This document shows, in pieces, positions 7,601 to 36,219 of a stretch of DNA of 46,034 nt. The notes under the pieces were generated by a model, which saw nothing but the letters and a program-made list of their open reading frames with translations, did no database searches and was not told where the DNA came from. Location of the stretch: NCBI GenBank assembly GCA_046351635.1, contig JAXLYC010000019.1:1-46034 (forward strand). The letters run 5' to 3'. Origin of the DNA: Nannocystaceae bacterium (GTDB taxonomy: Bacteria > Myxococcota_A > Polyangia > Nannocystales > Nannocystaceae). Each line of letters opens with the position of its first letter. Position 1 is the first letter of the stretch. Made by a program: the position numbers and the translations under genes.

Positions 7601-10332
7601 GCGCATCGTCGCCGCTGGTGGTGGTCTCACCGCGGCAACGCTTGACCCGCTCGGGCACGTCGACCATGACGTCGTCGGGGCCGCGCTTGGATCGCATGCG
7701 CGACAGCTCGAGCGTGTAGGCCTGCACCCGTCGCTGCTTGCCGTCGCGATCGACCGCGCGCAGGGTCCAGCTGCTGCCGTCGCTACGCTCGGTCGCCTTG
7801 ATCGCGAGATACTGCGAGGGATACACGAACCACGTCGCGGTCGCGCCGACCTCCTCGAAGCTGGCGTCTTGCACCGCGACGTCGATGCTGCAGGTAGTCG
7901 CCCGCGCAGCAGCCGGTCGACACCGCGTACGCACCGTGCCGTCGCCCTCGATCACCGCCTCGCCCGTGAGCGTGCGCGACCACGCCTCGTCCGGATCGGA
8001 CACCGCGGAGCCATCGACCAGTCGTCGTCGAGCCCCGGCAGGCGCACGCGACGCTGGCTGCAGATGTTGGCGCGGGCGCCGATGCCGTGCACGTGGCCAC
8101 CGAAGTAGAAGCTCGCGTGGGTCACGATCTCGGCCGGCTCGCCGCGCACGCGCGCGTCCGCCAGCGCCGCGGCGCGGACCTCGAACTGCGGCGGCCTCGT
8201 CGCGCAGCTCGAAGCGGGCTGAAGCGATGGCCGTCGATGACGGCGACGGCGTCGGCCATGCCCAGCGACGCCGTCGGCAGCAGGCGCAGGCGACCCCAGT
8301 ACTTGCCGTGGGCCGTGATCGCGACGTTGCGCTGCGCGACCGTCGCCGCGGCCGTCCGAGCTGCAGCACGACCTTGGTACCGGGCTTGGGCCGCGCGAAG
8401 GCCGTGCTCGGTGGTCGGGGTGCTGATCGCGGCCCAGCCCACCATCGAGACCGTCTCGCCCGGCAGGTAGATCGCGCGCTCGGTCGCGACGTCGCTGCGC
8501 AGCTCGTCGTGGGACACCGCCTCGGTCGGGGTCGCCAGCGCGACCAGGGTGCGGTCGTCGCCCTTGCGCACCAGCACCGACGCGCCCGCGGGTAGCACGC
8601 CCTCGCGCGGCAGCTGGGCGAAGCCGTCGTCGCCGGTGCGCAGTCGCTGCGTGCGCTTGCCGGCGGCGTCGATCACCTCGATCTGCGCGCTGGCGACCGG
8701 CGTCAGGTCCTCGAGCCGTCGCACCTGCAAGCGCGAGGTGCCCGGCGAAAGCCACGCGGCCAGGCCCAGATCGGTGACCTGGAACAGCCCGCGCGTGGGC
8801 GTGGGGCCGGGGCGGCCGCGGGCCTCGTCCATCACCGTGCCGGGCACGATCTCGACGAACAGCGGCCGACTCTTGCCGCCGGCGAGCGACGCGACGTCGA
8901 GTGCGATCGAGGACCACGCGAAGCGTCCGCTGGGTCCGAGATCGAGCTTGCGCTCGAGCGCATGTTCGGGGTGCTTGGGGAACGGCACCGAGGCGAGATC
9001 GCCGTGCTGCATCGCGACCCACTCGCTGTCGCTGGGCACCGCCGCGCGCAGGGTCGCGTCGTGCAGCCACCGCGACTCGAGCCCGACGGTGGTCGCGAGG
9101 CCGGGCCGCAGGGTGCCGCGGCTGCCGACCAGCTCGATCGACGGCGGTGGTGACACGAACACGACCTCTCGCGGTCGCTCGCCCGACAAGGCCTGGCCCA
9201 CGCGATCGCGCAAGTTGGCGGGGAACGTCACGCGGTAGCTCCGCAGCTCGAACTCGCCGTAGAGCGTGACCGCGCTGTCGCCCCAGGCCTCGCGGCGGAA
9301 GTGCTTGGGCCGCGGGCTGAGATCGATGCGCTCGAGGTCCTTCTCGGCGAACGGTGCGTCGAACTGCAGCGTCACGCCCATCGGGCCGCAACCGTCGCCG
9401 TGATCCTCCATGCACTGCACGCGCGCGCGCGGCCCCTCGGAGACCAGGAATCGCGCGACCGCGGGCTTGCCCAGGGCGCCGGCGCCTGCGGGTGCGAAGC
9501 GCTCGTCGAGCACGACCTCGACCTCGTGGCCCGCGGGCCAGCGGGTCGCGGGGTGCACGTGCAGGCGCCCGAGCTCGGGCGGATCGAGATCGACCGGCAG
9601 CGGGTGGCGCTGGTGTTCGCCGAGCACCCGCACCGGCACCGGCACCGCGGTCTTCGGATCGGCGCCGCGCTTCCACGCCCGCGCGCGCACGTGACCGCGC
9701 AGCGCCGCGGCGGTCGTGGGCAGCTCGACGCGCACGTCGACCGCGGCCTTGTGGTGCACCGTCGGCAGCGTCGACGCGGTGACCTCGCCGTCGTCGGCGG
9801 TGTCGTCGAGCGGTTGTCCCCACTGCCACGACGAGACCGGCTCGAGCTCGGCCCACGGCGCGCGGGTCTGCAGCGCCCACGACTCGTCGATGGTGATGAC
9901 CGTGCCGTCGTCCCGTTGCAGCTGCCCCTTCGCGCGCACGCGGTAGCTGCGACCCAGCGCCAGGGGTTCGCTGGGCACGAACCACGCGCGGTACGGATCG
10001 ACCCACACCGTCGCGCCCTCGACATGCGGTTCGAGCTCGAATCGCAGCGCATCCACCTGCGGACGCATCGGCCGGCTGAAGTGCACGTACGGCTGCGCCG
10101 ACTCCGACACCGGCGTGCCCGCGCGGGGTCCCACCGCTGCGACCTCGGCCGGCGCGCCGACCAGCTCCGGATCGCGCTTGGGTGCGTGACCGGCGGGATC
10201 GACCGTCGCGATCACCTCCGCTGCGGGCGGCCCCGCCGGCGCCTCGGGCACCAGCGCCCGCGAGGGGCCGTGGCACGCCGCCAGGGTCGTGAGGGCGAGG
10301 ACACCGTGGAGCTTGCGACGCGCGAAAGGCAT
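4623..10332 (-). pseudogene. Alpha-2-macroglobulin family lipoprotein gene disrupted by at least four frame changes
   Basis: N-terminus MPFARRKLHGVLALTTLAACHG (lipobox) starts at the ATG at 10332. The thioester motif YPYGCVEQTSS lies in the 3' part. Protein-like sequence moves between frames: the frame of ORF 8122..10473 down to about 8200; the frame of 7952..10567 to about 8040; the frame of 7131..8369 to about 7370; the frame of 6115..7524 to about 6990; then the frame of 4623..6998 to the stop. Confidence 0.75.
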
Positions 10333-23543: not shown

Positions 23544-26500
23544 TCAGCGACGGCGACGACGCCCAGACACTGCGACGACGACGACCAGTGCCCACGGCCA
23601 CGCGTGCGCGCGGGTCGTGGTGCAGCCGCAGCCGCCGCTGCCCTCGCCCTCGCCGTCGGCACCGGCGCTGCTGCTGCCACCGCTGCCGTCGGCGTTGCCC
23701 GAGCTCGCGCCGGCGGTGCCACCACTGCCGTCGCCACCACTGCCGTCGGCGCCGGTGTCGGTGCCGGCAGGATCGGGCGGCAGCGGCGAGTCGAGCAACC
23801 ATCGCACCGTGCGACGCACCTCGGTCTCGTTGCCGGCGAGGTCCTTCACCCGCGCCATGACCTCGACCTCGGGGTCCGACAGCGCGGTCGCGAGCGGGAT
23901 CTCGAGCACGTCGTGGGGCATCGCGCCGCCCTGCGCCAACATCGTCGCGCACGTTCCGGCCTCGTCGAGCACGCAGACCTCGAGCGAGGCGACGTCGATG
24001 CCGCTGGGGATGTCGACCGTGCCGACGCGCAAGGCGGTGACGGCGTCGCCGTCGTAGAGCGCGGCGAGGTTGAGCGTGGGCTTCTGCGTGTCGGTCAGCT
24101 CCTCGGGTCCACCGGGCGCGCCGATGTCGATCCAGCGGCCCAGGATGCCGAGCTGCTCCGGTGTGATCGTGGTCGGGTGATCGGGGCCGAAGTCGAGGTC
24201 GCGATCGTCGGGCGGCGACGCCTCGTCGAAGCTCGCGTCGGTGTTGCCGTCGGTGCGCATGCCCGCGGCCTTCCAGTACAGCGGGCTGCCCAGCGAGTTG
24301 AACGCGCGCACGTAGCGGGTCAGCTGTGGCCGGCGGAAGGTCGTGCCGTTGGTCGTGGCCATGCGCTGGGCCTCGGGCACGCACGACTGGCCGCGATCGG
24401 CGACCAGACACCACCAGGTCGAGTCCTGCTCGACCCCAGGGCGATCGAGCGCGAGCGATCCGTCGGGCGCGTCGCCGCTGTGGCACTGCGCGCAGTGCTC
24501 GTCGAAGATCGGCATGATGTCGCGCTCGAAGTCGATCTGCAGCGCGTAGCCCTCGACCTCGCGCACGGCCGGGCCCTGCGCGCCCGCACCCGCCAGCAGC
24601 GGCACGGTGCCCTCGCCCAGCGGGATCACGGGGTAGTCCGGCATCGCGGCGTAGCTGTCCTCGAAGCCGATGCGCGAGTCCTTCGAGTGCACGTGGCAGC
24701 CGCCGCAGGTCTTCATCTCGCCCGGCCGCAGGCTCTGCCAGCTCTGATCGGTGTTGAGCGTGTGGCCGTCGCAATCGATGCCCTGCATGAGATAGGGCGT
24801 GTTGGCGGGGAAGCGCACCAGGAAGCTGGTGTCGGCGTTGCCGCTGGGATCGACGACCGGCGCGCCGTCTTGCAGGTTGCGCACGCCGAACTCGCCGAGG
24901 ATGACCACGCGCTCACCGGCGACGTTGGCGATCTGCTCGTAGAGGTTGGTGCCGCGGTTGGGCAGCACGCCCAGGATGCGCACGCCGCAGAGATCCTCGT
25001 CGCCGTACTCGATCGTGTCGGTGCCCTGCAGATTGAACTGGTGCTCGCCGGCGAAGTGGATGCCGCCGACCGGGTGGGTCTCGCGATCGGTGATCGAGGC
25101 CGCGCCGAGCAGGCCGAACGGCGTGCCGACCGGCAGCTCCGGGCGCGAGGCCTGCTGGTCCGCGCGGGGGATCGCGGCCGGCGTCTCGATGCCGTGGATC
25201 GCCGCGTAGGGCACGACCGCGCGGGCCATGATCTCGTGCCACTGCGGCTCGTCGACCACGCGCTCGAGATCGCTGGGATGCTCCGAGGGCATCGTCGCGA
25301 CCTCGTAGATGCCCGCGTCGCACGCCGGCGTGTCGAGCTGCAGCTGGGTGAAGACGTTGGCCGCGACGCCCTGCCCCGAACCCGAGGTCGCCGGCGGCAC
25401 CGGCAGGCCCAGCGCGTCGAAGATGCCGTTGTCGGCCACGGTCCCGCACGCGCCCTTGCCCCACGTCGCCATCAGCCCGCCGTCGGGCAGCGCCGCGGCG
25501 TGGCCGAGCTTGCCGGCGAACACCACCGGATCGGCGTAGTTCGGATCCTGGTACGCGGGCGCGGGCATCACCGCCGCGAAGGAATCGCTGCTGCTGGACC
25601 AAGGCGCCAGCCGCACGATGTCGTGCGGCGCGTACAGATCCGCCAGCGGCGCAGTGGGATCGAGCATGCCCTCCTGCCCCGCCGGCTCGGGCATCACGCC
25701 CACGAGGTTGCCCAGGCCGTTGTTGTTGCCGCGGTAGTAGTCGGTGAACCACACGCGGCCATCGCCGGTCTGCGCGAGGAAGTGCGCGGCCTTGTGATCG
25801 ACGCCGGCGCTGGTGATGGGCGAGTGGTCGCCGCAGTGCTGGCCGTAGAACGCGAACGGATGCGCGCCGTCGGGCGCCTGCACGAAGATGTTGAAGGCGT
25901 TGCCGATGGTGCCGAAGCCACCCGGGCTGCCGTTGGTGTAGCGGAACGTCAGACCACCGAAGATCTGCCAGCTCGAGTAGGCCACGCGACCGTCGGCGAG
26001 CACCAGCGGGTGTTGCTCGAGCGACAGCGAGTGGTGACTGGCGAGATCGAGATTGCGACCGTCGGGATCGACGGTCCAGATGCGCGAGCCGTTGCCGGCG
26101 TTGTTGGTGCCCCACACCATCGTGGTGAGGTTGCCGTCGCGCGTGGAGGTGAACGCCAGGCGCCCGTCGGGTAGCCACGCCGGCCCCGCGTCCCAGGTGC
26201 CGGGCAGCCACGGCAGCTCGGTGAGCTCACCGGTCGCGACATCGACCAACATCAGCTGCGCGTGCTCGGTCTGCAGCAGCTTGCCCGGCAGATCGTGCCA
26301 CGCGTCGTCGCCACCGACCGCGACGGAGAAGTTCTCGCTGTTCGGCGTCAACGTGCCGCGGAAGACCGAGAACGCGATGGTCTCGCCGTCGAACGACACC
26401 GCCGGATCCATCGCCGCGCACGCGGCTGCATCGGTGCTCTCGCTGCCGCAGTCGTACAGCAGCGACTCGCTGCCGTCGGGTTGCCGCAGCACCAGATCGC

Positions 26501-26750
26501 ACGGCGCACTGAAGCCGCTGTAGAAGTGCGTGACGTCCGGCAGCACGTCGTAGACGTCGATGCCGATCATCGTCGTGCCCGGCAGCTGCAGCGGCTCGGT
26601 CGTGCGCGGGCAGCGGACGTAGGCGATCGGATGATCGAGCGCTTGGGCGCTGGGCACCAGCCACGGCACGGCCACGGCCGCCGCGATCACCAGGGGCGAG
26701 ACGTGCACCGCGCGGAGCACAGGACGGGGACGACGGCCGGGGGTGCGCAT
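23544..26750 (-). CDS. Large secreted protein: PD40/TolB-like beta-propeller repeats, two CxxCH motifs (one matching the PSCyt1 pattern), C-terminal MYXO-CTERM
   Basis: Signal peptide MRTPGRRPRPVLRAVHVSPLVIAAAVAVPWLVPSAQA. WLPDGRLAFTSTRDG-type propeller repeats. Two CxxCH motifs: MKTCGGCHVHSKD and FERDIMPIFDEHCAQCHSGDAPDGSLALD (the second fits the PSCyt1 pattern). The C-terminus GCGCTTTRAHAWPWALVVVVAVSGRRRRR is a MYXO-CTERM signal. Confidence 0.75.
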   Translation of the reverse strand: MRTPGRRPRPVLRAVHVSPLVIAAAVAVPWLVPSAQALDHPIAYVRCPRTTEPLQLPGTTMIGIDVYDVLPDVTHFYSGFSAPCDLVLRQPDGSESLLYDCGSESTDAAACAAMDPAVSFDGETIAFSVFRGTLTPNSENFSVAVGGDDAWHDLPGKLLQTEHAQLMLVDVATGELTELPWLPGTWDAGPAWLPDGRLAFTSTRDGNLTTMVWGTNNAGNGSRIWTVDPDGRNLDLASHHSLSLEQHPLVLADGRVAYSSWQIFGGLTFRYTNGSPGGFGTIGNAFNIFVQAPDGAHPFAFYGQHCGDHSPITSAGVDHKAAHFLAQTGDGRVWFTDYYRGNNNGLGNLVGVMPEPAGQEGMLDPTAPLADLYAPHDIVRLAPWSSSSDSFAAVMPAPAYQDPNYADPVVFAGKLGHAAALPDGGLMATWGKGACGTVADNGIFDALGLPVPPATSGSGQGVAANVFTQLQLDTPACDAGIYEVATMPSEHPSDLERVVDEPQWHEIMARAVVPYAAIHGIETPAAIPRADQQASRPELPVGTPFGLLGAASITDRETHPVGGIHFAGEHQFNLQGTDTIEYGDEDLCGVRILGVLPNRGTNLYEQIANVAGERVVILGEFGVRNLQDGAPVVDPSGNADTSFLVRFPANTPYLMQGIDCDGHTLNTDQSWQSLRPGEMKTCGGCHVHSKDSRIGFEDSYAAMPDYPVIPLGEGTVPLLAGAGAQGPAVREVEGYALQIDFERDIMPIFDEHCAQCHSGDAPDGSLALDRPGVEQDSTWWCLVADRGQSCVPEAQRMATTNGTTFRRPQLTRYVRAFNSLGSPLYWKAAGMRTDGNTDASFDEASPPDDRDLDFGPDHPTTITPEQLGILGRWIDIGAPGGPEELTDTQKPTLNLAALYDGDAVTALRVGTVDIPSGIDVASLEVCVLDEAGTCATMLAQGGAMPHDVLEIPLATALSDPEVEVMARVKDLAGNETEVRRTVRWLLDSPLPPDPAGTDTGADGSGGDGSGGTAGASSGNADGSGGSSSAGADGEGEGSGGCGCTTTRAHAWPWALVVVVAVSGRRRRR

Positions 26751-26934
26751 GGCGACCTCCAGAGGTCGCGCGAGCGCGGCGAAACGGCTCACGGGCCCGC
26801 ACGGGTGTGGGGCCACGGTGCGTGCCCCGACCCGCGCCCGTGCGCGGTCGCGCGGGTGGCGAGCTGACACACCCCGCGCGCGGTATCGTCGAGCCTGCGC
26901 CGCCCCGCGGCACCGGGCAGCGCAGGCCCGACGC

Positions 26935-28019
26935 ATGAGACTCGATCCCACCCTCGCGCTCCCGTTCGCCGTGGCACTGGCGTGCCACGCACCGACCACC
27001 TCGCCCGGCAGCGCGCCCGCGGTCGCGCAGGATTCCGCGACGCGGCTGCAGGTGCGGGTCGATCCGCGCGTCGAGCTGTTCTCGATGCTGTGGCGCACCG
27101 CTGGCATCCCGCCCTACGCGCCGCAGGACGAGCATCGCACGCCCTACGAAGCGGCGGTCGACGCTCGCATGGCGCCGCTGCGGTCGCACCCCGCGGTGCA
27201 GCAGGCCGAGGCGCTGGCCGAGTCCAAGGGCATCGGCTTCGACGCGCCGATGAGCCTCGCGGTCACCTGAGCTGGCCCGAGCTCGAGCTCGTGCGTCCGC
27301 TGCAGCCCTGGCCAGCATCGCTCGACGACCGCTGGCAGGGGGTCGACATGGACGCGTGGCTCAGCACGGTGCGTTCGTTCGCGAGCGACGCGCGGCTGGC
27401 CGAGTTCTTCGGCGAGCAACGGCCGTTGTGGGACCGCGTCGACGCGACGATGGCGGCGTTCGTGCAGGCGCACGGTGCCGACGCGCCCCAGTGGCTGCAC
27501 GAGTTCAGCGGCACCGCGATCGCACAGACGGTGCTGGTCCAGGGCCTGCTCACCGAGCGCGGCAACTACGGCCCGCACGTCGTGCTGCCCGACGGGCGCA
27601 AGACCGCATACCAGATCATCGTGAACTGGCACCCCGACGAGGACGGCGTGCCACGGCCACAGCCCGATCTCGCGGTGTTCTACATCCACGAACTCGCGCA
27701 CAGCTACATGAACCCGCTGGTCGAGCGCCACGCGTCGATCCTGCAAGCCTCGGCGCAGGCGCTGTACGACCGACATGCCGCGGCGATGGAGGCAGTGGGC
27801 TACGGCGAGTGGTACTCGGTCGCGTGCGAGTCGTTGGTGCGCGCCGCGACCCGCACCTACCTGCACGATGATCCCGAGGCGGCCGCCGGCGCGGACGAGA
27901 ACGACCGCCTGCAAGGCTTCGCGTGGGTCCCCGAGGTTGCCGCCGTGCTCGAGCCACCACTCGACGAGACCGACATGACCGCGGTCGCACAGGTGCTCGC
28001 GCGCCACGGCGCGCCGTGA
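26935..28019 (+). CDS. HExxH-motif lipoprotein (possible zinc-dependent hydrolase), apparently frameshifted near 27265
   Basis: MRLDPTLALPFAVALACHAP lipobox in the frame of ORF 26743. That frame ends ...GFDAPMSLAVT*, and the protein continues in the frame of ORF 26982 (LSWPELELVRPLQPW...YIHELAHSYMNPL...). The junction is at cggtcacctgagctgg. Confidence 0.6.
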
Positions 28020-28022
28020 GGG

Positions 28023-29633
28023 TCAGCCCAGCGCGCGGATCGTCACCACCGTCGGCCGCAGCCCCACGTCCGCGGCCAGGCACCACCGCGGCGCGGCCTT
28101 GCCCATCGCGCGCCAGCCCGGCGCCTGCGACAGCGCGAAGGCGCCGCGATCGAGCGCGAGCTCGACGGTCTCACCCCGCGGCAGGAACACCAGCGCGCCG
28201 TTGTCGGTGGTGCGCACGCGCAGGGACTCGGGCACGAAGTAGCGCACCACCCCCGCGACGACGGGCGGCGCGAGTTCGTCGGTGATCTGGATGCGATCGC
28301 CGTCGAAGATCACGCGACGTCGGTGGGTCGCGGCGCCCTTGTAGCCGCGGACCTCGGCCAGCAGGCGCCGCGCACTGGCCTCGAGCTGGTGCGGCAGCGC
28401 GCGGCCGCCGATGCGGTGGCTCTTCCACAGCTCGTGTTGATCGCGGTCGCCCACGGTGACGGTGTTGTGCGCCGCGGTCGAGCGCGCGTAGCGACGATCG
28501 TCACCCTCGACGTAGGTGCCCACGCCGGCGTCGACCAGCACGCGCGTGCGACCGTACGACAGCTCGATCGACAGGCAATCGCCGTGGATGTGCCCGGTCT
28601 GCTGCGGCAGGCCCACGCCGCCTTGGTTCCACAGCAACGTGAACGGACCCCATGCTCGCCGTGCGAAGCCGCTGTCGCTCGCGTCGGCGTCGCCCTCGGC
28701 CAAGGCCACGGCGCAGCGATGGGCCAGGCGCATGGGCGTGACCGGGGCCTGCAGCTGGCTGTCGCCCCACAGCGCGACGTCGCCATCGGGATGCGTGAAC
28801 GCGGGCAACACTGCGAGCATGTGCTCCAAGGCCACGCGCAGCGGATCGGCCACACCCGGCAGGCGCGGCTCGGCCAGCGCGATCACCAGCGACAGCTGCT
28901 CGGCGAGCAGGCAGTGGTAGCTGGGCGTGCGCTCGGCATGCACGCCGTCGTCGCCCAGCTGCGCCTGCACGCAGTGCAGCAGCGGTGTCGCGAAACGCTC
29001 GAGCATGGCTGCCGGTACGTGACCGCGCAGCGCCAACCCACCGGCGACCAGCGCGACCAGGTTGGTCCACAGGTGGTTGCCGTCGAGGTGGAGCTCGACG
29101 TGCGAGGCGAGGTGCTGCAGCTGCGCGCTCACCGACGCGAGCACCAGCTCGAGCTCGCCCGCATGCAGGTGGGCGCCGTCACGCGCGAGCCAGCCGAGCC
29201 AGTGCAGCAGCCGCTGCGAGCAGGGATACGGCTCCCAGCCCACGCCTTCGCGGTGCTCTTCGATCCAGTCGAGCACGGTCGCGCGGGCCTGCGCGCGTGT
29301 GCACGCGGGATCGGCGAGCCAGCCGTGGTAGTGCAGCGTGTACACCCACAGCGGATCGCCATCGCCGGTCCAGCCGAAGCGCACCGGATCGTGCGCCGGC
29401 TGACCCAGCAACACCACGCCGCCGTCGGGCTCGATGTGGCCCTCGGGCGAGGGCCCCACGAAGCCCTCGGGCAGCTGCAGCGCGTCGCAGCCGGGCGCGC
29501 GCGACTGCGTGGGGCTGCGCGCGGGCCCGCGGGAACGCTGGCGCACGAACGCGAGCAGCTGCGTCGGCCGCAGGTGCGCCGCCGATCGCAGCGTGGGGCC
29601 CAGGGTCTCGATCGCGCGGCGCAGTCGGGTCAT
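28023..29633 (-). CDS. Heparinase II/III-like polysaccharide lyase family protein
   Basis: MTRLRRAIETLGPTLRSAAHLRPTQ.... It has motifs I take to be heparinase II/III-like and alginate-lyase-like (WVYTLHYHGWL, HGDCLSIELSYG). ATG at 29633 confirmed. Confidence 0.7.
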   Translation of the reverse strand: MTRLRRAIETLGPTLRSAAHLRPTQLLAFVRQRSRGPARSPTQSRAPGCDALQLPEGFVGPSPEGHIEPDGGVVLLGQPAHDPVRFGWTGDGDPLWVYTLHYHGWLADPACTRAQARATVLDWIEEHREGVGWEPYPCSQRLLHWLGWLARDGAHLHAGELELVLASVSAQLQHLASHVELHLDGNHLWTNLVALVAGGLALRGHVPAAMLERFATPLLHCVQAQLGDDGVHAERTPSYHCLLAEQLSLVIALAEPRLPGVADPLRVALEHMLAVLPAFTHPDGDVALWGDSQLQAPVTPMRLAHRCAVALAEGDADASDSGFARRAWGPFTLLWNQGGVGLPQQTGHIHGDCLSIELSYGRTRVLVDAGVGTYVEGDDRRYARSTAAHNTVTVGDRDQHELWKSHRIGGRALPHQLEASARRLLAEVRGYKGAATHRRRVIFDGDRIQITDELAPPVVAGVVRYFVPESLRVRTTDNGALVFLPRGETVELALDRGAFALSQAPGWRAMGKAAPRWCLAADVGLRPTVVTIRALG

Positions 29634-29636
29634 CGC

Positions 29637-29702
29637 GGACAGCCCGCCCACGGTATCCACGACCGGCGCACGATTGAACCGCCCTCGACGCAGCCGCGAG
29701 AA
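29637..29702 (-). other. Relic of the 3' end of a UDP-sugar 6-dehydrogenase gene, in frame immediately upstream of the heparinase start
   Basis: The translation RLRRGRFNRAPVVDTVGGLS and the DNA around 29655-29712 are about 75% similar to the true 3' end of the dehydrogenase gene at 31570-31620 (RLRREWFNRPSVVDTVGLLTR*). Confidence 0.5.
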
Positions 29703-29836
29703 CCTGCCGTGTTGCAGCGACAGGACGCCCCACTGCGGTGCGCCGAGCCGGCCCCGCGTCACCGAGCCGTGCCCAACGCAGCGGCGCCGCAGCCCTCGCC
29801 GTCATCGCGACGGTGCCGACCGACCAAGGGCCCTGC

Positions 29837-31543
29837 GTGCACCGCCACGTCCTGACCCTCGCCGTGACCTGCGCCCTGGGTGGGTGCCGAGCGCACGACC
29901 CCGAATCGCAGAGCCTGCAGCCGGGCGAGAGCTCCTCGGACAGCGGCGCCGACGCGTCGTCCGCGGGCCCGAGCAGCGCGTCGGGCGGCGGCGACAGCAG
30001 CACGGGAACCAGCGACGACACCGGCACCTCGAGCACTGGCGCGGACGCGCCGCAGGGCATCGTCGCGATCCTCGCCATCCGCGAGGTCGACGGCCGGGTG
30101 CAACAGCACCGCGTGCGGCTGCAGCACGGCGCACCGCCGCAGTTCGAGCGGTTGCACCCCGACGATGGGCGCTCGTGGATCGAGACCGTCGAGCTCTCCG
30201 ACGGTGGGCTCGTGCTGCACGCCGAGGGATCCGACGGCACCACGCTGTGGTCGGTTGCGGTCGACGACAGCGGCGTCGGTGAAGCCACCCCGATCGCCAC
30301 CGTGGGTGGACCCGCCGGCATCTCGACCCTGCAGGCGATCCCGGGCGCGGCGGCGGTCGCCTTCGTCGACGTGGGCGAAGGCAACGCCTACCGCGTCGAC
30401 TTCGACGACGTCGACGACCCCGCCGCGGCGATCGTCGCAACCGACGTGATCGTCGGCGGACCCGTGAGCCCAGACGGCGCAGCCATGCTCGTCACACGAT
30501 CACCGAGTCCCGGCGGCGGCGTCGCGCACTGGCAGCGCGCTCGGCTGGTTGCGCCCGGCGGGGTCGAACCGATCGCGTTCGCGCCCAGCGTGGGCGACAC
30601 GTTCGCGGGCTTCACCGCCGACGGCCGCGGCGCGTGGTTCACGACCTTCGACAACGCGGCGTTCGCCAACGGCGACGATCTCTATTACGTCGACTTGACC
30701 TCCGACCCGTTGGCTGCGCCGGTGCGGGTCAACGACGTCGTCACCGACCCCGACGAGCGGCTGGTGCCGTGTCAGGGCGACGTCGTCAGCGCGGCCGCCG
30801 GCGCCAGCAGCCACGTCGTCGACGACCTCGCGACCGGCGAGCGGCGGCGGTACGTCTCGCGGGTCGTCGACGGCACGCCTCAGCCGAGCGAGGTGATCGC
30901 GGTCGGCGTGGGCGCGTCCTCGGACGAGTGCCGCTGGTCCGCGGACGGGTCGTGGTTGGTGTACGAGGGCGGCGACCTCGACACCAGCACGCTCGACATG
31001 CTCGCGGTCGAAGGCGGGGCCCCGCGGGACATCGCGACGCTGGTGGCGTGGCCGCGCGGCGAGGAGCCCTTCCGCGTCGTCGCCGGCGACGCCGACGGCA
31101 TCGTGCTGGTGCACCGCGTCGACGACCCCGATTTCGCCGAGCTGTGGCGGGTGCCGCTCGTCGACGGCGTCTCCGGTGAGCCCGAGCTGCTGGTCGATGC
31201 CGAAAGCGACGGCGCGCCGCCGCGCAACGGTCTCGATGCCGGGGTCACGCCCTCACGCCCGCCGATCGCAGGATCGATCCTCTATCGCGGCAAGTACGGC
31301 GACGGCCACGCGATCTGGATGGTCCACACCACCGACGCCACACTCGAGCAGATCAGCGACGAAGATCCCGGCGCCGAGGTGTTGGCCGGCTCGATCGCGC
31401 CCGATGGCACCTTCGTGACGTACGGATTGTGGGACGAGCAGACCGCGTCCGCCGAGCTGCGCGTCCGCGACCGCATGCTCGGCGGACCTTCGATCCACCT
31501 CGCCGATGGCGTGGTCGCGGAGCGCTTTGCCAGGCAGCCGTAG
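29837..31543 (+). CDS. Hypothetical lipoprotein (probable beta-propeller fold)
   Basis: GTG start in frame (VHRHVLTLAVTCALGGC lipobox). Ser/Gly/Asp linker. Repeated DG/WxxDG-like segments. TAG at 31541-31543. Convergent with the dehydrogenase gene. Confidence 0.55.
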   Translation: MHRHVLTLAVTCALGGCRAHDPESQSLQPGESSSDSGADASSAGPSSASGGGDSSTGTSDDTGTSSTGADAPQGIVAILAIREVDGRVQQHRVRLQHGAPPQFERLHPDDGRSWIETVELSDGGLVLHAEGSDGTTLWSVAVDDSGVGEATPIATVGGPAGISTLQAIPGAAAVAFVDVGEGNAYRVDFDDVDDPAAAIVATDVIVGGPVSPDGAAMLVTRSPSPGGGVAHWQRARLVAPGGVEPIAFAPSVGDTFAGFTADGRGAWFTTFDNAAFANGDDLYYVDLTSDPLAAPVRVNDVVTDPDERLVPCQGDVVSAAAGASSHVVDDLATGERRRYVSRVVDGTPQPSEVIAVGVGASSDECRWSADGSWLVYEGGDLDTSTLDMLAVEGGAPRDIATLVAWPRGEEPFRVVAGDADGIVLVHRVDDPDFAELWRVPLVDGVSGEPELLVDAESDGAPPRNGLDAGVTPSRPPIAGSILYRGKYGDGHAIWMVHTTDATLEQISDEDPGAEVLAGSIAPDGTFVTYGLWDEQTASAELRVRDRMLGGPSIHLADGVVAERFARQP

Positions 31544-31554
31544 GCGCGACGACG

Positions 31555-32817
31555 TCAGCGCGTCAGCAACCCCACGGTGTCGACCACCGACGGCCGGTTG
31601 AACCACTCGCGCCGCAGCCGTGCGAACGCGCGGTGGGCCACCAGCACCACGACGATGTCGGCGGTGCGCAGGGCTTCCTCCGCGCCCACCAGCGGCACGC
31701 CCGGGATCGGCGAGTTCTGCAGGTGGGGCTCGACCGCGACGACGTCGCCGAAGTCCGCGGCGGCGAGCTCGCGCACGACCTCGATCGCCGGGCTCTCGCG
31801 CACGTCGTCGATGTCGGGTTTGTAGCTCAGGCCCAGGCACGCGATCTTCGGCCGCTTGAAGCGCTCCGCGACCGTGCGGACCTGCGCGACCACGCGGTGC
31901 GGTCGCTGATCGTTGACGCGGCGTGCGGCGGCGATGAGCGGGGTGTGCTCGGGCGCGACCGCGATGATGAACCACGGGTCGACCGCGATGCAGTGTCCAC
32001 CCACGCCGGGACCCGGGCGCAGGATGTTCACGCGCGGGTGACGGTTGGCCAGCTTGATGACCTCCCACACGTCGAGGTCGAGCGCGTCGCACACGTTCGA
32101 CAGCTCGTTGGCGAAGGCGATGTTCACGTCGCGGAACGCGTTCTCCGACAGCTTGACCAGCTCCGCCGCGTCGGCGGTGCAGCGCAGCACCTCGCCGGCG
32201 ACGAAGCGCTCGTAGAACGCGGCCGCGACCTCGGTGCAGGCGGGGGTCACGCCGCCGACGACGCGGTCGTTCTCGACCACCTCGCGGATGACGGCCCCGG
32301 GCAACACCCGTTCCGGTGCGTGCGCCACATAGACGTCCTGGCCGGCCACGAGCCCGGCCTGGGCGAGGATCCCCGCGACCATCGTGCGGGTGGTCCCCGG
32401 CGGGCTGGTCGACTCGAGCACGACGAGGTTGCCCGGTCGCAGCACCGGCACCAGCGCGCGCGTCGCCGACTCGACGTAGCTCAGATCCGGCGTGTGCCCC
32501 GGTCCGAAGGGCGTGGGCACGCAGATCAGGAACGCGTCCGCGGGCTGCGGCGTCGCGAACGCGCGCAGCCGCCCCGCGCTGACCGAGGCCCGGACCAGCG
32601 CGTCGAGCTCGGGCTCGACGATGTGGATCTTCCCCTCGTTGATGGTCGCGACCACGTCGTTCCGTGTGTCGGTGCCACAAATTTTCATCTGCCCGCGGGT
32701 CGCGAGCACCGCGGCGGTCGGCAACCCCACGTATCCGAGACCGATCACACAGACATCCCATGCGCTCGATGCGGTCGGGTCTGCAGCTGCGCGTGAAGTG
32801 GGCGATGACGTGTTCAT
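31555..32817 (-). CDS. UDP-N-acetyl-D-mannosamine / UDP-N-acetylglucosamine 6-dehydrogenase (WecC/WbpA family)
   Basis: Near-colinear match to WecC: VCVIGLGYVGLPTAAVLATRG, GKIHIVEPELD, CVPTPF, RVNILRPGPGVGGHCIAVDPWFI, KPDIDDVRESPA. ATG at 32817 (the second start of the ORF). Confidence 0.85.
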   Translation of the reverse strand: MNTSSPTSRAAADPTASSAWDVCVIGLGYVGLPTAAVLATRGQMKICGTDTRNDVVATINEGKIHIVEPELDALVRASVSAGRLRAFATPQPADAFLICVPTPFGPGHTPDLSYVESATRALVPVLRPGNLVVLESTSPPGTTRTMVAGILAQAGLVAGQDVYVAHAPERVLPGAVIREVVENDRVVGGVTPACTEVAAAFYERFVAGEVLRCTADAAELVKLSENAFRDVNIAFANELSNVCDALDLDVWEVIKLANRHPRVNILRPGPGVGGHCIAVDPWFIIAVAPEHTPLIAAARRVNDQRPHRVVAQVRTVAERFKRPKIACLGLSYKPDIDDVRESPAIEVVRELAAADFGDVVAVEPHLQNSPIPGVPLVGAEEALRTADIVVVLVAHRAFARLRREWFNRPSVVDTVGLLTR

Positions 32818-32958
32818 CTGCAAGACTCCATGTCATGCTACGGGCAAAGTCGTGATCGCGTCCATGGTGGGTAGGTTCGATTCCTCGCCGCGGTGGGTCC
32901 GGCAGCGCGCCGCGACTGTCATCGCCCGCGCGCTCGCGACAAGGATCGGGGTCTGGCC

Positions 32959-34473
32959 GTGAACGCATCCCTGGGCACGCTGTGGCTCGGCGCGCTGGTC
33001 TCGTTCGCGCTCGTCGCGGGCGCGATGCCGCTGGTGCTGCGGGCGTGGCGGTCGCTCGGTCGTCGCGACGACGAGGTCAGCCTGCGCAAGGTCCACACCG
33101 GCCAGATCCCGCGCGCCGGCGGCCTGGTCATCCTGTTCGGCTTCGGCGTGATGCTGGTCGCCGGCCTCGCCGGCGTCAGCTCGCTGTCCGCGACCCACGA
33201 GCTGTTCTCGGTCTCGCCGCTGACCGGCGCGCTGGTCGGCGCGCTCGTGGTCGGACTCACCGGCGCGTGGGATGATCTCATCGGCCTGCGGCCGCGGACC
33301 AAGCTCGCGATGCAGCTGGTCGGCGCGACGCTCGCGGTGCTCTACGGCCTGCACTGGCCCGCGCTCGAGTTGCTCGTGGGCTGGGAGTACAACTGGCTCG
33401 CGACGCTGCTGACCATCGGCTTTCTGGTCGCGTCGGTGAACGCGGTCAACATGATGGACGGGCTCGACGGGCTCGCCGCGGGCATCTGCCTGGTGGGCTT
33501 CGGCACCGTGGTCGCGGCGATCTTCGCCGGCCCGACCCTGGTCCCGGGCACGCTCGCGGTCGGCTGGGCCGCGGCCTGTGCCCTGGGTGCCACCGGCGGC
33601 TTCCTGCTGCACAACCGCCACCCCGCGCGCGTGTTCATGGGCGACGCGGGCAGCTACTTCCTGGGCTTCCTGCTGCCGGCGCTGCTGGTCCAGGTGGGCC
33701 CGGTGCGCTGGCGCGTGCCGGAGATCCAGCTGTCGATCGCGATCCTGCCGCTGGCGGTGCCGATGTTCGACATGACGCTCGCGATCGTGCGCCGGACCCT
33801 GCGGGGCCAGCCGATCTTCAGCGGCGACTCCGACCACGTGCACCACCGGCTGATGGCCGCGGGCTTCACCCACGCGCGCGCGGTGACCGTGCTGTGGCTG
33901 TCGGCGGCGATGTTCGGATCGCTCGCCTACCTCAACGTCATCGGCATCGGTGGATGGTGGACGCTGCTGGGCACCCTGGTCGCGATGGTGCTGGCCGCGG
34001 TGCTGCTGGGCTACCACCGCATGCTGGCGCAGCTGCCCGCGTTCACCGGCGAGCGCTTCCTGGGCTGGCGGGATCGTCGCCGCGAGGTGATGGAACTGCT
34101 CGACACGCTCGAGCACGTGCGACTGTCGGGCAACGACCGCGGCGAGGTCCGCTGGCGCCGGGTCGCGCCCGACCTCGCGCTGGTGCTGGGACGCCTGGGC
34201 ATCCCCGCGTTCCAGATCCGCCGCTTCGACGACGTCGTGGTCGGCAGCGGCGACGCGCGCGATGCCTGGGCGTGGCTGAGCCTGCCGGTGCCGGGCGAGG
34301 ACGGGGCCGAGCTGCGACTGGCGCTGGCGGTGCGGCTGCCCGAGCTGCAGCAGGAGCGCCTGATGCTGATCGAGCGCGCCGTGCTGGCGGTCGCCGGCGA
34401 CGGCGGTGCCGCGGCGCGTCAGCTGACGGTCGTGCGCGGCGGCGGCGAGCGTCCCTCGGCCGCCGCGCCCTGA
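32959..34473 (+). CDS. UDP-HexNAc:undecaprenyl-phosphate HexNAc-1-phosphate transferase (WecA/MraY GT4 family) with a C-terminal extension of about 170 aa
   Basis: GTG at 32959. RKVHTGQIPRAGGLVILFGFGV aligns with WecA. Has the NAVNMMDGLDGLAAG and VFMGDAGSYFLG motifs. Protein-like sequence continues about 170 aa past the last transmembrane helix. Divergent from the dehydrogenase gene across a 141 bp intergenic region. Confidence 0.8.
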   Translation: MNASLGTLWLGALVSFALVAGAMPLVLRAWRSLGRRDDEVSLRKVHTGQIPRAGGLVILFGFGVMLVAGLAGVSSLSATHELFSVSPLTGALVGALVVGLTGAWDDLIGLRPRTKLAMQLVGATLAVLYGLHWPALELLVGWEYNWLATLLTIGFLVASVNAVNMMDGLDGLAAGICLVGFGTVVAAIFAGPTLVPGTLAVGWAAACALGATGGFLLHNRHPARVFMGDAGSYFLGFLLPALLVQVGPVRWRVPEIQLSIAILPLAVPMFDMTLAIVRRTLRGQPIFSGDSDHVHHRLMAAGFTHARAVTVLWLSAAMFGSLAYLNVIGIGGWWTLLGTLVAMVLAAVLLGYHRMLAQLPAFTGERFLGWRDRRREVMELLDTLEHVRLSGNDRGEVRWRRVAPDLALVLGRLGIPAFQIRRFDDVVVGSGDARDAWAWLSLPVPGEDGAELRLALAVRLPELQQERLMLIERAVLAVAGDGGAAARQLTVVRGGGERPSAAAP

Positions 34474-34480
34474 GCCGGCA

Positions 34481-36070
34481 TCACTGCGACCGCGGCGGCG
34501 CGGTGCGAGGCGGCCGCGCGGCCGCGGCGTTGCGGCTCGCGACCACGCGCGGCATCGGTCCGGTCACGTGGACGTCGAAGTCGTCGCCCTTGCGCGTGAC
34601 CACCGCGTGGGTCGGCGCGCGCGCCGGTGTCAGGCCCAGCAGCGGCGCAAGCGACTCGAGCCCGCGCAGCTGCGACAGCATCTCGCCCTCGATCGCGAAC
34701 GCGGCCGAAAGCAGATCCTCGGTGGTCTTGCTGCCCGGGGTCGCGCCCTTGGTCTGCTCGAGCCACTCGCCCAGGGCCTCGTTGGCCGAGGGCCCGACCG
34801 CGACCACGACCGCGCCGGCGTGCTCGCTGCCGGCGAACGCGATGCGTAGCGCACCCTCGTCGTCGATGAGCGGCGCGAGCTCCGGCGGCAGCAGCTTGCG
34901 TGCGTTGTCGACCGCGATCACGTGGATCGACACGCCCGCCGCGGTCGAGCGGTTGCGCTTGAACCGCAGCTTGGGCACCGACACGCCGAAGGTGCGCGCG
35001 AGATCGAGGTTGCCCAGCACCGCGTCGATGAGGCTGCCGACCGCGCCGCTGGCCTTCTTGGGATCGTCGGCGCCCAGCGCCAGCAACACGTGGCGCTTGG
35101 GGCCCAGGCCCACCAGCACGCGGCCGTTCCAGCTGCGCAGCACCGCGTTGTAGCGCTTGAGCATGTCCTCGAGCACGCCCTTGACCAGGAAGTTCTGCTT
35201 GTCGACCGTGCGCGTGGCCTGGCCGATGAGATCCTTCACCACGGTCTGGTACTTGGCGTAGCGCGAGCTCGCGGCCGCGACGATCGACGGCGATGCCAGC
35301 AGCCCCGTGAGCGCGCCCTCGGTGAAGTCGGACAGCTGCGCGATGGGGCCGTCGCCGTCGGCGGTGATGCGGAAGTCGGTCACGTCCTCGCCGACCAGGC
35401 CGATGCGCTGGAACGGGAACGAGGGCACGCCCTTGCGCACCTCGGCGCCGTCGAGCGTCAGATACAGCCCGTGCTTGCCGTAGGCGCGGCCGAGCTCGCG
35501 CGCGGTCGCGAGGCCGCGCTCGTCGCTCGCGAGCGCGAGCGTGGCGTTGGCGGTGTCGAGCCACGCGAGCTTGGGTGGCGGCGGCGTCATCTCGATGGCC
35601 TCGCGCGGCAGCTCGACCGCGCCGAACTTGCCCACCGCCTTCTTGCCGCGCAGCAGTGCCTGGACCTCGGCCAACCGCACGCGCTCGATCGGCACCTGCA
35701 CCACCAGCTGACCTTCGACCAGCGCCGCGCTCCACGGCCGCGCCAGATCGAGGTCGTCGACCAGCTGACGCTCGAACGAAAGACCGACGGCGCCGAGCAG
35801 CTCGCGCAGCACCGCGCGGGGATCGTTGCCCAGGCCCAACGTCTGGCCCAACGCCGCCAGCGCAGGCGCAGGCGCGGCGACGTGGCTCGCGAACGCCGGC
35901 TTGGCCGCCAGGCTGTAGGGCCGCGGCATCGACGGGGGCGGCGGCGCCTCGCGCTGCCGACCGTGCACACCGCCGGTGCCCGGGGTCGTCGCGCCGGGCT
36001 TGGGATCGTGCTTGCACGCCACCGGGGCGAGCAGGAGGAGCGAGAGCAGCAACCGCGGCGAGCGTCGCAT
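34481..36070 (-). CDS. Hypothetical lipoprotein
   Basis: MRRSPRLLLSLLLLAPVACKHD lipobox. 529 aa with balanced composition. ATG at 36070 confirmed. Confidence 0.6.
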   Translation of the reverse strand: MRRSPRLLLSLLLLAPVACKHDPKPGATTPGTGGVHGRQREAPPPPSMPRPYSLAAKPAFASHVAAPAPALAALGQTLGLGNDPRAVLRELLGAVGLSFERQLVDDLDLARPWSAALVEGQLVVQVPIERVRLAEVQALLRGKKAVGKFGAVELPREAIEMTPPPPKLAWLDTANATLALASDERGLATARELGRAYGKHGLYLTLDGAEVRKGVPSFPFQRIGLVGEDVTDFRITADGDGPIAQLSDFTEGALTGLLASPSIVAAASSRYAKYQTVVKDLIGQATRTVDKQNFLVKGVLEDMLKRYNAVLRSWNGRVLVGLGPKRHVLLALGADDPKKASGAVGSLIDAVLGNLDLARTFGVSVPKLRFKRNRSTAAGVSIHVIAVDNARKLLPPELAPLIDDEGALRIAFAGSEHAGAVVVAVGPSANEALGEWLEQTKGATPGSKTTEDLLSAAFAIEGEMLSQLRGLESLAPLLGLTPARAPTHAVVTRKGDDFDVHVTGPMPRVVASRNAAAARPPRTAPPRSQ

Positions 36071-36219
36071 CGTGTTGGACCCTACCAGGAAGACCACGCG
36101 CGGGCACGCGCGCGCATGGGGCACTGACGCCGCGCGACAGCGGCGGCTTCAGCGTCGCGGTGGCCGACGTGGCGCGGCACACCGGTAGCCCGCCAGCTTT
36201 GCGCCAGCCTGCAGCGCGC

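Follow-up and report, generated by a model that had tools for sequence, protein, structure and literature searches.

In a 46,034-nt stretch of Nannocystaceae DNA (hereafter the window), the final ~80 nt of wecC (31555-31635, minus strand) recur in decayed form just before a heparinase II/III-like gene, and this identity of the relic at 29634-29711 was confirmed by alignment, database-style search and comparison with relatives. We consider it very probable (about 0.8) that the relic is a true gene remnant, that is, a displaced and decaying wecC end left at a junction opened by foreign DNA. As a trace of genome rearrangement it is genuine but rather commonplace, and the event that left it is neither recent nor unique. 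The features of the locus are listed in Table 1.

Table 1. Features at the wecC/heparinase-like junction (positions in the window)
Feature	Position	Strand	Remark
Heparinase II/III-like gene, 536 aa	28023..29633	-	Hepar_II_III_C and Hepar_II_III_N
ATGA, overlap site of heparinase-like ATG and ancestral wecC TGA	29630..29633	-	
Relic core, wecC 3' end	29634..29711	-	~78 nt; decayed copy of the codons for HRAFARLRREWFNRPSVVDTVGLLTR
Possible more decayed part of the relic, boundary uncertain	29712..29750	-	exact GCGCACCGC block, ~57% identity (hand count)
Spacer from relic to lipoprotein gene start	29712..29836	.	
Putative lipoprotein gene, 568 aa, inserted cargo	29837..31543	+	
11-nt gap between the convergent lipoprotein-gene and wecC stops	31544..31554	.	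other edge of the insert
Functional wecC 3' end, intact repeat copy	31555..31635	-	
wecC, UDP-N-acetyl-D-mannosamine dehydrogenase family, 420 aa	31555..32817	-	
Glycosyltransferase family 4 (GT4; WecA/MraY-like), divergent from wecC	32893..34473	+	conserved syntenic flank; start probably GTG 32959

The repeat and its parent gene

A repeat search of the window returned 29640-29711 and 31564-31635 as a 72-nt direct repeat with 74% identity (53 of 72 ungapped matches), in good agreement with the ~75% identical copy of the dehydrogenase 3' end that an earlier note had described. When gaps are allowed, the local alignment lengthens to 29629-29711 against 31554-31635, so that the wecC stop TGA lines up with the ATGA at the heparinase-like start. 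As a control for chance, both strands of the whole window (450 tiles) were scanned with the 176 nt that lie upstream of the heparinase-like gene. The wecC 3' end ranked first with a score of 54, the next unrelated tile scored 37, and the tile mean was 23 (sd 4); the pairwise alignment that the note had proposed as a check is therefore above chance. Our rough Gumbel estimate for such a match anywhere in the window, with positional information unused, is ~p = 0.02. The relic (VLSLQHGRFSRLRRGRFNRAPVVDTVGGLS) was also found by tblastn in ~0.7 Mb (window plus loci) with the last 47 aa of WecC as query (E = 4.6e-5), the match being restricted to aa 17-46 of these 47.

The translation given in the note is correct, and the relic does share its frame with the heparinase-like start codon, the ATG at 29633. 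However, this frame relation is true for the window only: it was created by a 1-nt insertion near 29637-29638 in the window lineage and is absent in other lineages, where the terminal TGA of the relic overlaps the heparinase-like ATG. Besides this insertion before the ATG, the window relic shows decay in replaced residues (among them E to G, W to R, L to G and T to S) and in the loss of its stop. Partial similarity to the parent, the position held by the parent in relatives, and decay, all of them expected of a gene remnant, are thus found together, and orthologous relics that are better preserved occupy the same position in two other lineages.

The remnant is ~80 nt long, perhaps with a further decayed part that brings it up to ~120 nt. 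The extension over 29712-29750 is only suggestive, since permissive scoring over-extends in 72% GC DNA, and exact relic edges read from permissive (+1/-1) alignments were discarded as unreliable for the same reason. Across the copies the lengths seem unequal (~80-120, ~105 and ≥108 nt); the high-identity part begins near -80 in all of them, and weaker homology reaches ~-105 to -120, varying by copy.

Ancestral gene order and the lineages that carry a relic

The proposal that the dehydrogenase was once followed directly by the heparinase-like gene is borne out by the comparison with related genomes that the note had called for. In 26 of 36 related Nannocystaceae/Myxococcota loci, wecC directly precedes the heparinase-like gene on the same strand, and in 11 of these, including L003, L009, L023 and L006, the wecC stop and the heparinase-like start overlap as ATGA. 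These four are the nearest relatives of the adjacent type. Adjacency with the ATGA overlap is both the common and the outgroup state, and the relic retains the ATGA. The window is also collinear with its relatives, having unk547, GT4 and wecC on one side and the heparinase-like and 1187-aa genes on the other, so that the lipoprotein gene represents extra DNA between wecC and the heparinase-like gene, which supports the claimed insertion of this segment. In the genomes of the sister 'N' group, GT4-wecC is kept and the heparinase-like gene is located elsewhere. No relic above chance was found in the N-group loci L002, L004, L005, L007, L008, L010-L012 and L054, nor any additional tail copy in all remaining loci.

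The same three-gene order together with the relic, which the note would have taken as a sign of an ancient conserved feature, was seen only in L048 and L049, and these are not independent evidence because their genomes are 99.4-99.7% identical. The suggestion that the insertion is recent did not hold, since the opening predates the split from SSF46 and a 71%-identical lineage has a relic too. Both SSF46 (93% identical) and that lineage, L056/L050, carry a wecC-tail relic before the heparinase-like gene with different cargo, and the relics of SSF46 and L056 are 79-96% identical to wecC. In SSF46 the cargo comprises a membrane protein, a lipoprotein homologue, a cupin and TetR; in L056 a MacAB-like efflux operon lies between wecC and the relic, which is followed by the heparinase-like gene. 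Between the window and SSF46 the flanks are collinear with ~90% nt identity but the interior is not: the lipoprotein genes show 74% (nt) and 63% (aa) identity, and the window lacks the remaining SSF46 cargo genes. Since SSF46 shares both the lipoprotein homologue and the relic, the opening of the junction is older than that split.

The SSF46 type has, in addition, a third, nested wecC-tail copy. A 4.4-kb contig (L043), 99-100% identical to two MAG contig ends, reads SSF46-type wecC tail, geneX, tail copy 2, lipo', cupin, TetR and tail copy 3. Copies 1 and 3, the outer ones, share ~96% identity, and the middle one is 83-89% identical to them.

The signal peptide of the window's putative lipoprotein contains LGGC, where the homologue has LAAC, and the protein belongs to no Pfam family; its gene has a GC3 of 0.89 and a dN/dS of 0.47 versus its only homologue cluster. 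No homology was detected between the 29712..29836 spacer and the equivalent SSF46-type sequence. Scans for consensus promoters and terminators (29400-31800) found none, and an Rfam scan of 28000-33000 gave chance-level miRNA matches only. A donor genome in which the cargo natively adjoins wecC was not found, which counts against the displaced-remnant reading. Elsewhere in the window, a DUF4932 gene insertion (~26796-28028) is absent from SSF46; no tail duplication was detected at its junctions, where the score is at chance level.

Origin of the duplicated end

The following history would account for these observations. The ancestor had wecC next to the heparinase-like gene on one strand, the two overlapping as ATGA. 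In the clade holding this genome, foreign DNA probably opened the junction; wecC retained or received a whole 3' end, while the heparinase-like gene stayed joined to a second copy of it. Since both genes are intact after their separation, the event was presumably duplicative, the only kind that leaves both whole. The site afterwards behaved as a variable-cargo spot, with three gene sets between wecC tail and relic in three lineages, the cargo being bounded by wecC-tail repeats without an integrase or transposase. By analogy with a published model (PMC5361080), we infer that the most likely process, known as homology-facilitated illegitimate recombination or 'C-terminal displacement', was recombination that used homology in wecC as its anchor and made a non-homologous join at the far side, and that the cargo may later have been swapped via the conserved flanks by ordinary homologous recombination. 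Gene conversion between tail and relic probably took place as well, judging from genome-specific states common to both: those of SSF46 show 3 differences over ~78 nt, and those of L056 have GGC, ACC CGA TGA and GAT in common.

What stands against the displaced-remnant reading is the order of divergence among the SSF46-type copies, which is unlike simple serial displacement and requires either that gene conversion took place or that the whole block was recently re-integrated. The ~80 informative nt fit a single ancient opening with later conversion and several independent duplicative insertions alike. As regards a possible donor origin of the functional 3' end, the functional tail of the window is the least SSF46-like part of wecC (0.85 versus 0.93 overall). 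It contains a 32-nt block identical to the outgroup L009, and a run of this kind is expected ~0.14 times by chance along the gene (a rough estimate), which is not significant.

Chance similarity in GC-rich DNA, or a true heparinase-like N-terminus starting from GTG 29762, would remove the relic altogether, and both are extremely improbable. Although 25-50-nt chance repeats at 70-77% identity are numerous in this 72% GC window, the wecC-tail match is a clear top-score outlier with a tblastn E value of 5e-5; a chance match is thus refuted by the window-wide tile scan, by tblastn and by the orthologous relics. An open frame from GTG 29762 does continue into the heparinase-like gene, but all heparinase-like homologues begin at the ATG, as does the NCBI call, and SSF46 and L056 lack the frame continuity, which rules out an N-terminal extension. 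We also regard it as very improbable that the wecC 3' end is an attachment site at which integrase islands, each bringing its own tail copy, left attL/attR-like repeats, the integrase being since lost or acting in trans. Such islands would explain why inserts are bounded by direct repeats of a gene's 3' end and why one site holds different cargo in three lineages, with a tandem nested arrangement in one of them. Tail direct repeats are present at both ends, but neither a tyrosine/serine recombinase gene nor any other integrase, transposase or mobility gene was found in any cargo or in ~9 kb of flanks (Pfam scans and precomputed calls); furthermore, the relic lengths are apparently unequal and the cargo consists of ordinary chromosomal-type genes. 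A transposon with target-site duplication was rejected, as the repeat measures ~80 nt or more against 2-15 bp and a transposase is absent; no terminal inverted repeats were detected at 29712 or 31554.

Whether the relic is neutral or selected was judged from divergence. The window and SSF46 relics are 80% identical, close to the 77% of fourfold-degenerate sites in the heparinase-like gene, so the window relic looks neutral; from these values it appears to evolve neutrally and probably has no role beyond being part of the heparinase-like gene leader. The relic cores of L056 and SSF46, on the other hand, are 86% identical versus 56% at neutral sites (p = 2e-6), which could reflect selection instead of neutrality. 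It is conceivable, though unlikely, that the relic is selected as the carrier of heparinase-like expression signals once contained within the wecC 3' end (such as a promoter, leader or short coupled reading frame that lies upstream and ends in ATGA), so that viable rearrangements would have to bring ~60-80 nt of wecC with the gene. In keeping with this, all three separated-but-linked haplotypes have a relic although the cargo turned over completely, its heparinase-like-proximal part is better kept than the distal part in all three, and the core (-56..-1) of L050/L056 is 81-86% identical to that of the window or SSF46, against 56-57% at heparinase-like fourfold sites. By eye we noted TTCAAT-N17-TACCGT in the two most conserved blocks, a motif uncalled by the consensus scan. 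However, the functional tails of SSF46 and L056 are equally alike (7 differences in 51 nt, ~86%, hand count), so that copying from the coding tail explains the conservation of the relic, and genome-specific states are common to tail and relic. The window relic is frameshifted and its divergence matches the neutral rate, the N-group genomes express the heparinase-like gene without any relic, and a comparison of relics and tails gave no conserved RNA structure, with an unfavourable covariation term. The GAT that gives TACCGT also occurs in the functional L056 tail, and a relic-specific, promoter-making GAC to GAT change was dropped on this account. The broader idea that in a Nannocystaceae clade the wecC 3' end is a reusable homology anchor for integrase-free serial gene capture, with the adjoining tail copy kept by conversion or selection for heparinase-like expression signals, seems doubtful to us; it would amount to a displacement array like those of rhs and T6SS loci, but one built on a housekeeping-type polysaccharide gene and loaded with non-toxin cargo.

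Taken together, the displaced wecC end provides a dated, anatomically clean case in which translationally overlapping genes were parted without loss via a duplicated shared end, and in which the opened junction became a place of turnover for unrelated genes among close relatives. It reveals no new kind of element. For the annotation of polysaccharide loci in Nannocystaceae this means that the relic is not to be taken for an N-terminal extension of the heparinase-like protein.

Comparison with known systems

Like the pseudogene fragments found at ordinary breakpoints, the relic is short, non-functional and decaying, with a frameshift and amino-acid-changing substitutions. Unlike them, it is kept at the same place in three lineages with different inserted genes, and in two of the three it is near-identical to the functional tail.

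Genomic islands in the 3' ends of tRNA or protein-coding genes duplicate the target end as attL/attR (for example ICESt1/ICESt3 in fda), and tandem island accretion occurs at such sites. The junction shares with them an intact gene end on one side and a partial copy on the other, the direct repeats and the possibility of tandem accretion. It differs in having no integrase, excisionase or conjugation genes, in repeats of ~80-120 nt with unclear and apparently unequal edges, and in a cargo of one to four ordinary genes.

For rhs loci and for the T6SS effector-immunity arrays of Vibrio cholerae, C-terminal or sequential displacement by homology-facilitated illegitimate recombination was put forward (Kirchberger 2017, PMC5361080, which cites Jackson 2009, PMC2935791). 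There, as presumably here with wecC, a constant upstream gene is the homology anchor, incoming DNA brings genes along with a new 3' end and shifts the previous end downstream, serial 3' fragments are left over, and cargo differs among related strains without an integrase. The conserved anchor, serial 3' fragments and strain-specific downstream genes of a displacement array are all seen here: the tail is present three times in the SSF46 type, and the three lineages hold three sets of cargo. In contrast to those arrays, the anchor is a sugar-nucleotide dehydrogenase and not a polymorphic toxin, the displaced end is a conserved tail and not a variable toxin domain, the cargo (lipoprotein, membrane protein, cupin/TetR, MacAB-like pump) follows no toxin-immunity logic, and the divergence of the copies breaks the 'newest next to the anchor' rule. 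Even so, it is 3'-end displacement, one-sided homologous recombination plus an illegitimate join, that the junction most resembles. On a small scale, nature here provides a case in which one-sided-homology insertion can be examined outside toxin systems.

Repeat of the wecC 3′ end and ancestral gene order

The window, from a Nannocystaceae metagenome-assembled genome (MAG), is 72% GC.

Genes around the wecC/heparinase-like junction of the window
Gene	Position	Strand	Remarks
PD40/HZS_alpha protein	23544–27107	−	mechanical ORF, 1187 aa; true start probably near 26750
DUF4932 gene	about 27150–28019	+	
Heparinase II/III-like gene	28023–29633	−	536 aa
Putative lipoprotein gene (lipo)	29837–31543	+	568 aa; without Pfam family
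wecC-type UDP-sugar dehydrogenase	31555–32817	−	
Family-4 glycosyltransferase (GT4)	32893–34473	+	
Unknown protein	34481–36124	−	

The start calls for wecC conflict (31555–32823): NCBI gives 397 aa for this MAG, relatives and JGI give 420 aa, and the longest ORF, opening with TTG, has 422 aa. The PD40/HZS_alpha ORF is too long, the version at the related locus L048 having 1068 aa; from comparison with L048 and SSF46 (the MAG of a close relative), the start is probably an ATG preceded by GGAGG. The DUF4932 gene (26796–28028) lies on the opposite strand, and 3 nt separate its stop from that of the heparinase-like gene. The window and L048/L049 have this gene but SSF46 lacks it, and there the next gene after the heparinase-like one is the large PD40/HZS_alpha gene. 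The DUF4932 junctions show no duplication.

An earlier note had proposed that the last ~55 bp of wecC recur before the heparinase-like gene. Alignment, a window scan and tblastn all confirm this decayed copy (the relic), at about 80 nt. Ungapped, 29640–29711 and 31564–31635 agree at 53 of 72 positions, in DNA where short repeats of 70–77% identity are frequent; with one gap allowed the alignment extends to 29629 and 31554, and the wecC TGA falls on the ATGA where the heparinase-like gene begins. The match stands above background: of the whole window, the functional wecC end (the tail) best matches the sequence that precedes the heparinase-like gene (score 54, next tile 37; tile mean 23, sd 4), and at the protein level tblastn matches the relic to wecC with E = 4.6e-5. 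The relic translation and the frame shared with the heparinase-like gene had also been read correctly. The relic ends in CGATGA and the outgroup terminus is CTG TCG CGA TGA, the difference being one base inserted in the relic. It is this 1-nt insertion that creates the shared frame, and the in-frame relation is therefore accidental.

A profile of the heparinase-like protein, run against one genome per species, returned 37 loci, 36 of which are counted here (SSF46 excluded). The immediate upstream same-strand neighbour is wecC in 26 of the 36, usually with a divergent GT4 gene and an unknown 547-aa gene further upstream. The wecC stop and heparinase-like start overlap as ATGA in 11 loci, including L003, L006, L009 and L023 (the nearest adjacent-type relatives of the window) and five named Nannocystis species. 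Since the adjacent order is found in the sister of the window clade (L003/L009) and on all deeper branches of a neighbour-joining tree of the heparinase-like protein, and overlaps occur in 11 loci, adjacency with overlap is, on this comparison, ancestral, as the earlier note had supposed.

Three haplotypes at the junction

In haplotype H1 (window, L048, L049), wecC is followed by lipo on the opposite strand, the relic and the heparinase-like gene; L048 and L049 are 99.4–99.7% identical to the window and thus belong to the same population. In H3 (L050/L056, heparinase-like protein 71% identical to that of the window), an ABC ATPase, an FtsX/MacB permease and a MacA-like adaptor, all on the opposite strand, separate wecC from a relic that reads FAEFLRAWFNRHAVVDTVGLLTR up to its stop, with the ATGA overlap present before the heparinase-like gene. 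H2 is that of SSF46 (93% for the same protein), whose wecC contig stops just past wecC and whose other contig begins 482 nt before the heparinase-like gene; a 4.4-kb Logan contig (L043) joins both ends at 99–100% identity. Here the wecC tail is followed by a 282-aa membrane protein (geneX), a second, decayed tail copy (L043 3210–3320, reading RSTRATAVRSARGALSRLRRERSNRRAVVDTVGPLPR, stop lost), a lipo homologue (lipo′), a cupin, a TetR gene, and a third tail copy terminating in ATGA at the heparinase-like start. The middle copy and lipo′ are collinear with the window wecC tail and lipo over 1.8 kb (74% identity), and the H1 and H2 flanks are collinear for >9 kb on each side (about 90% identical). 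No integrase or transposase was found in any cargo or flank. By gene content, the junction is a variable-cargo site common to at least three lineages.

Because lipo and lipo′ (63% aa identity) have equal lengths of 568 aa, a dN/dS of 0.47 and high GC3, they are, by these sequence measures, real genes. With a dS of 0.56 they are about twice as diverged at synonymous sites as the flanks (0.24–0.30), so the interior is older than the flanks or faster-evolving. The family is extremely narrow: about 5.8 billion proteins yielded just two clusters at 90% identity, each of them from this Nannocystaceae group, and there is no Pfam match.

Eight of the profile-search loci (L002, L004, L005, L007, L008, L010, L011, L012) and L054, whose upstream sequence is identical to L002, form the N group, sister genomes that retain GT4-wecC with other genes downstream of it. 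Their heparinase-like loci have unrelated surroundings, in which no relic was found. A GGTGCTAAGGTCGC motif ~14–25 nt before the heparinase-like ATG is common to L002 (about 1990–2019), L004 (about 7970–8000) and L007 (about 7940–7970), and may represent an extended −10-like element whose leader would be very short.

Age, decay and origin of the relic

Of the relics in the three haplotypes, that of the window has decayed furthest, and its 80% identity to the SSF46 relic, against 77% at fourfold sites, is about the divergence of neutral sites. In SSF46, relic and functional tail disagree at only 3 of about 78 positions, and the L056 relic shares with its own tail the genome-specific states GGC, ACC CGA TGA and GAT. 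The L056 and SSF46 relic cores agree at 86% of positions, fourfold sites at 56% (p = 2e-6); the functional tails of the two resemble each other to the same degree, with 7 differences in 51 nt by hand count. The outer two H2 copies are most alike (middle copy 83–89%), an order that speaks against simple serial displacement unless conversion also took place. Over the ~80 nt compared, two histories suit these patterns: one old opening with tail-to-relic gene conversion, or repeated duplicative insertions. The earlier note had set a recent insertion against an ancient conserved feature; with relics in at least three lineages, the insertion is not recent.

The window functional tail (31555–31640) shares a 32-nt identical block with outgroup L009 (7923–8004). 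The synonymous states of all other copies in its clade form a different set, and wecC is least like that of SSF46 over its last ~100 nt (0.85 vs 0.93). This tail may be a recombination patch, a reading that is not statistically secure.

Two overlapping genes have thus been separated by completely different cargo in different lineages, and both remained intact because their common end exists twice. The relics and differing cargo of the three haplotypes support the earlier proposal that intervening DNA pushed the genes apart and left a dehydrogenase relic behind. We infer one-sided recombination, in which homology in wecC would provide the anchor and an illegitimate join the other side, as the kind of event that best fits an integrase-free insert with the resident 3′ end left downstream; cargo swaps via the conserved flanks, and conversion between the repeats, would account for the remaining patterns. 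A tandem duplication across the junction with later insertion is possible. A live rival is that selection maintains the relic to serve the heparinase-like gene as promoter or leader; its proximal part is the best kept in all three haplotypes. However, neither a consensus promoter nor a conserved RNA structure was found for it, the N-group genomes manage without it, and the window copy appears neutral. Homology-anchored recombination with an illegitimate join, as favoured here, is also the origin proposed for rhs C-terminal displacement and Vibrio T6SS arrays (PMC5361080). The present locus, with its wecC-tail relic and variable cargo, is a further example of an already known kind of scar.
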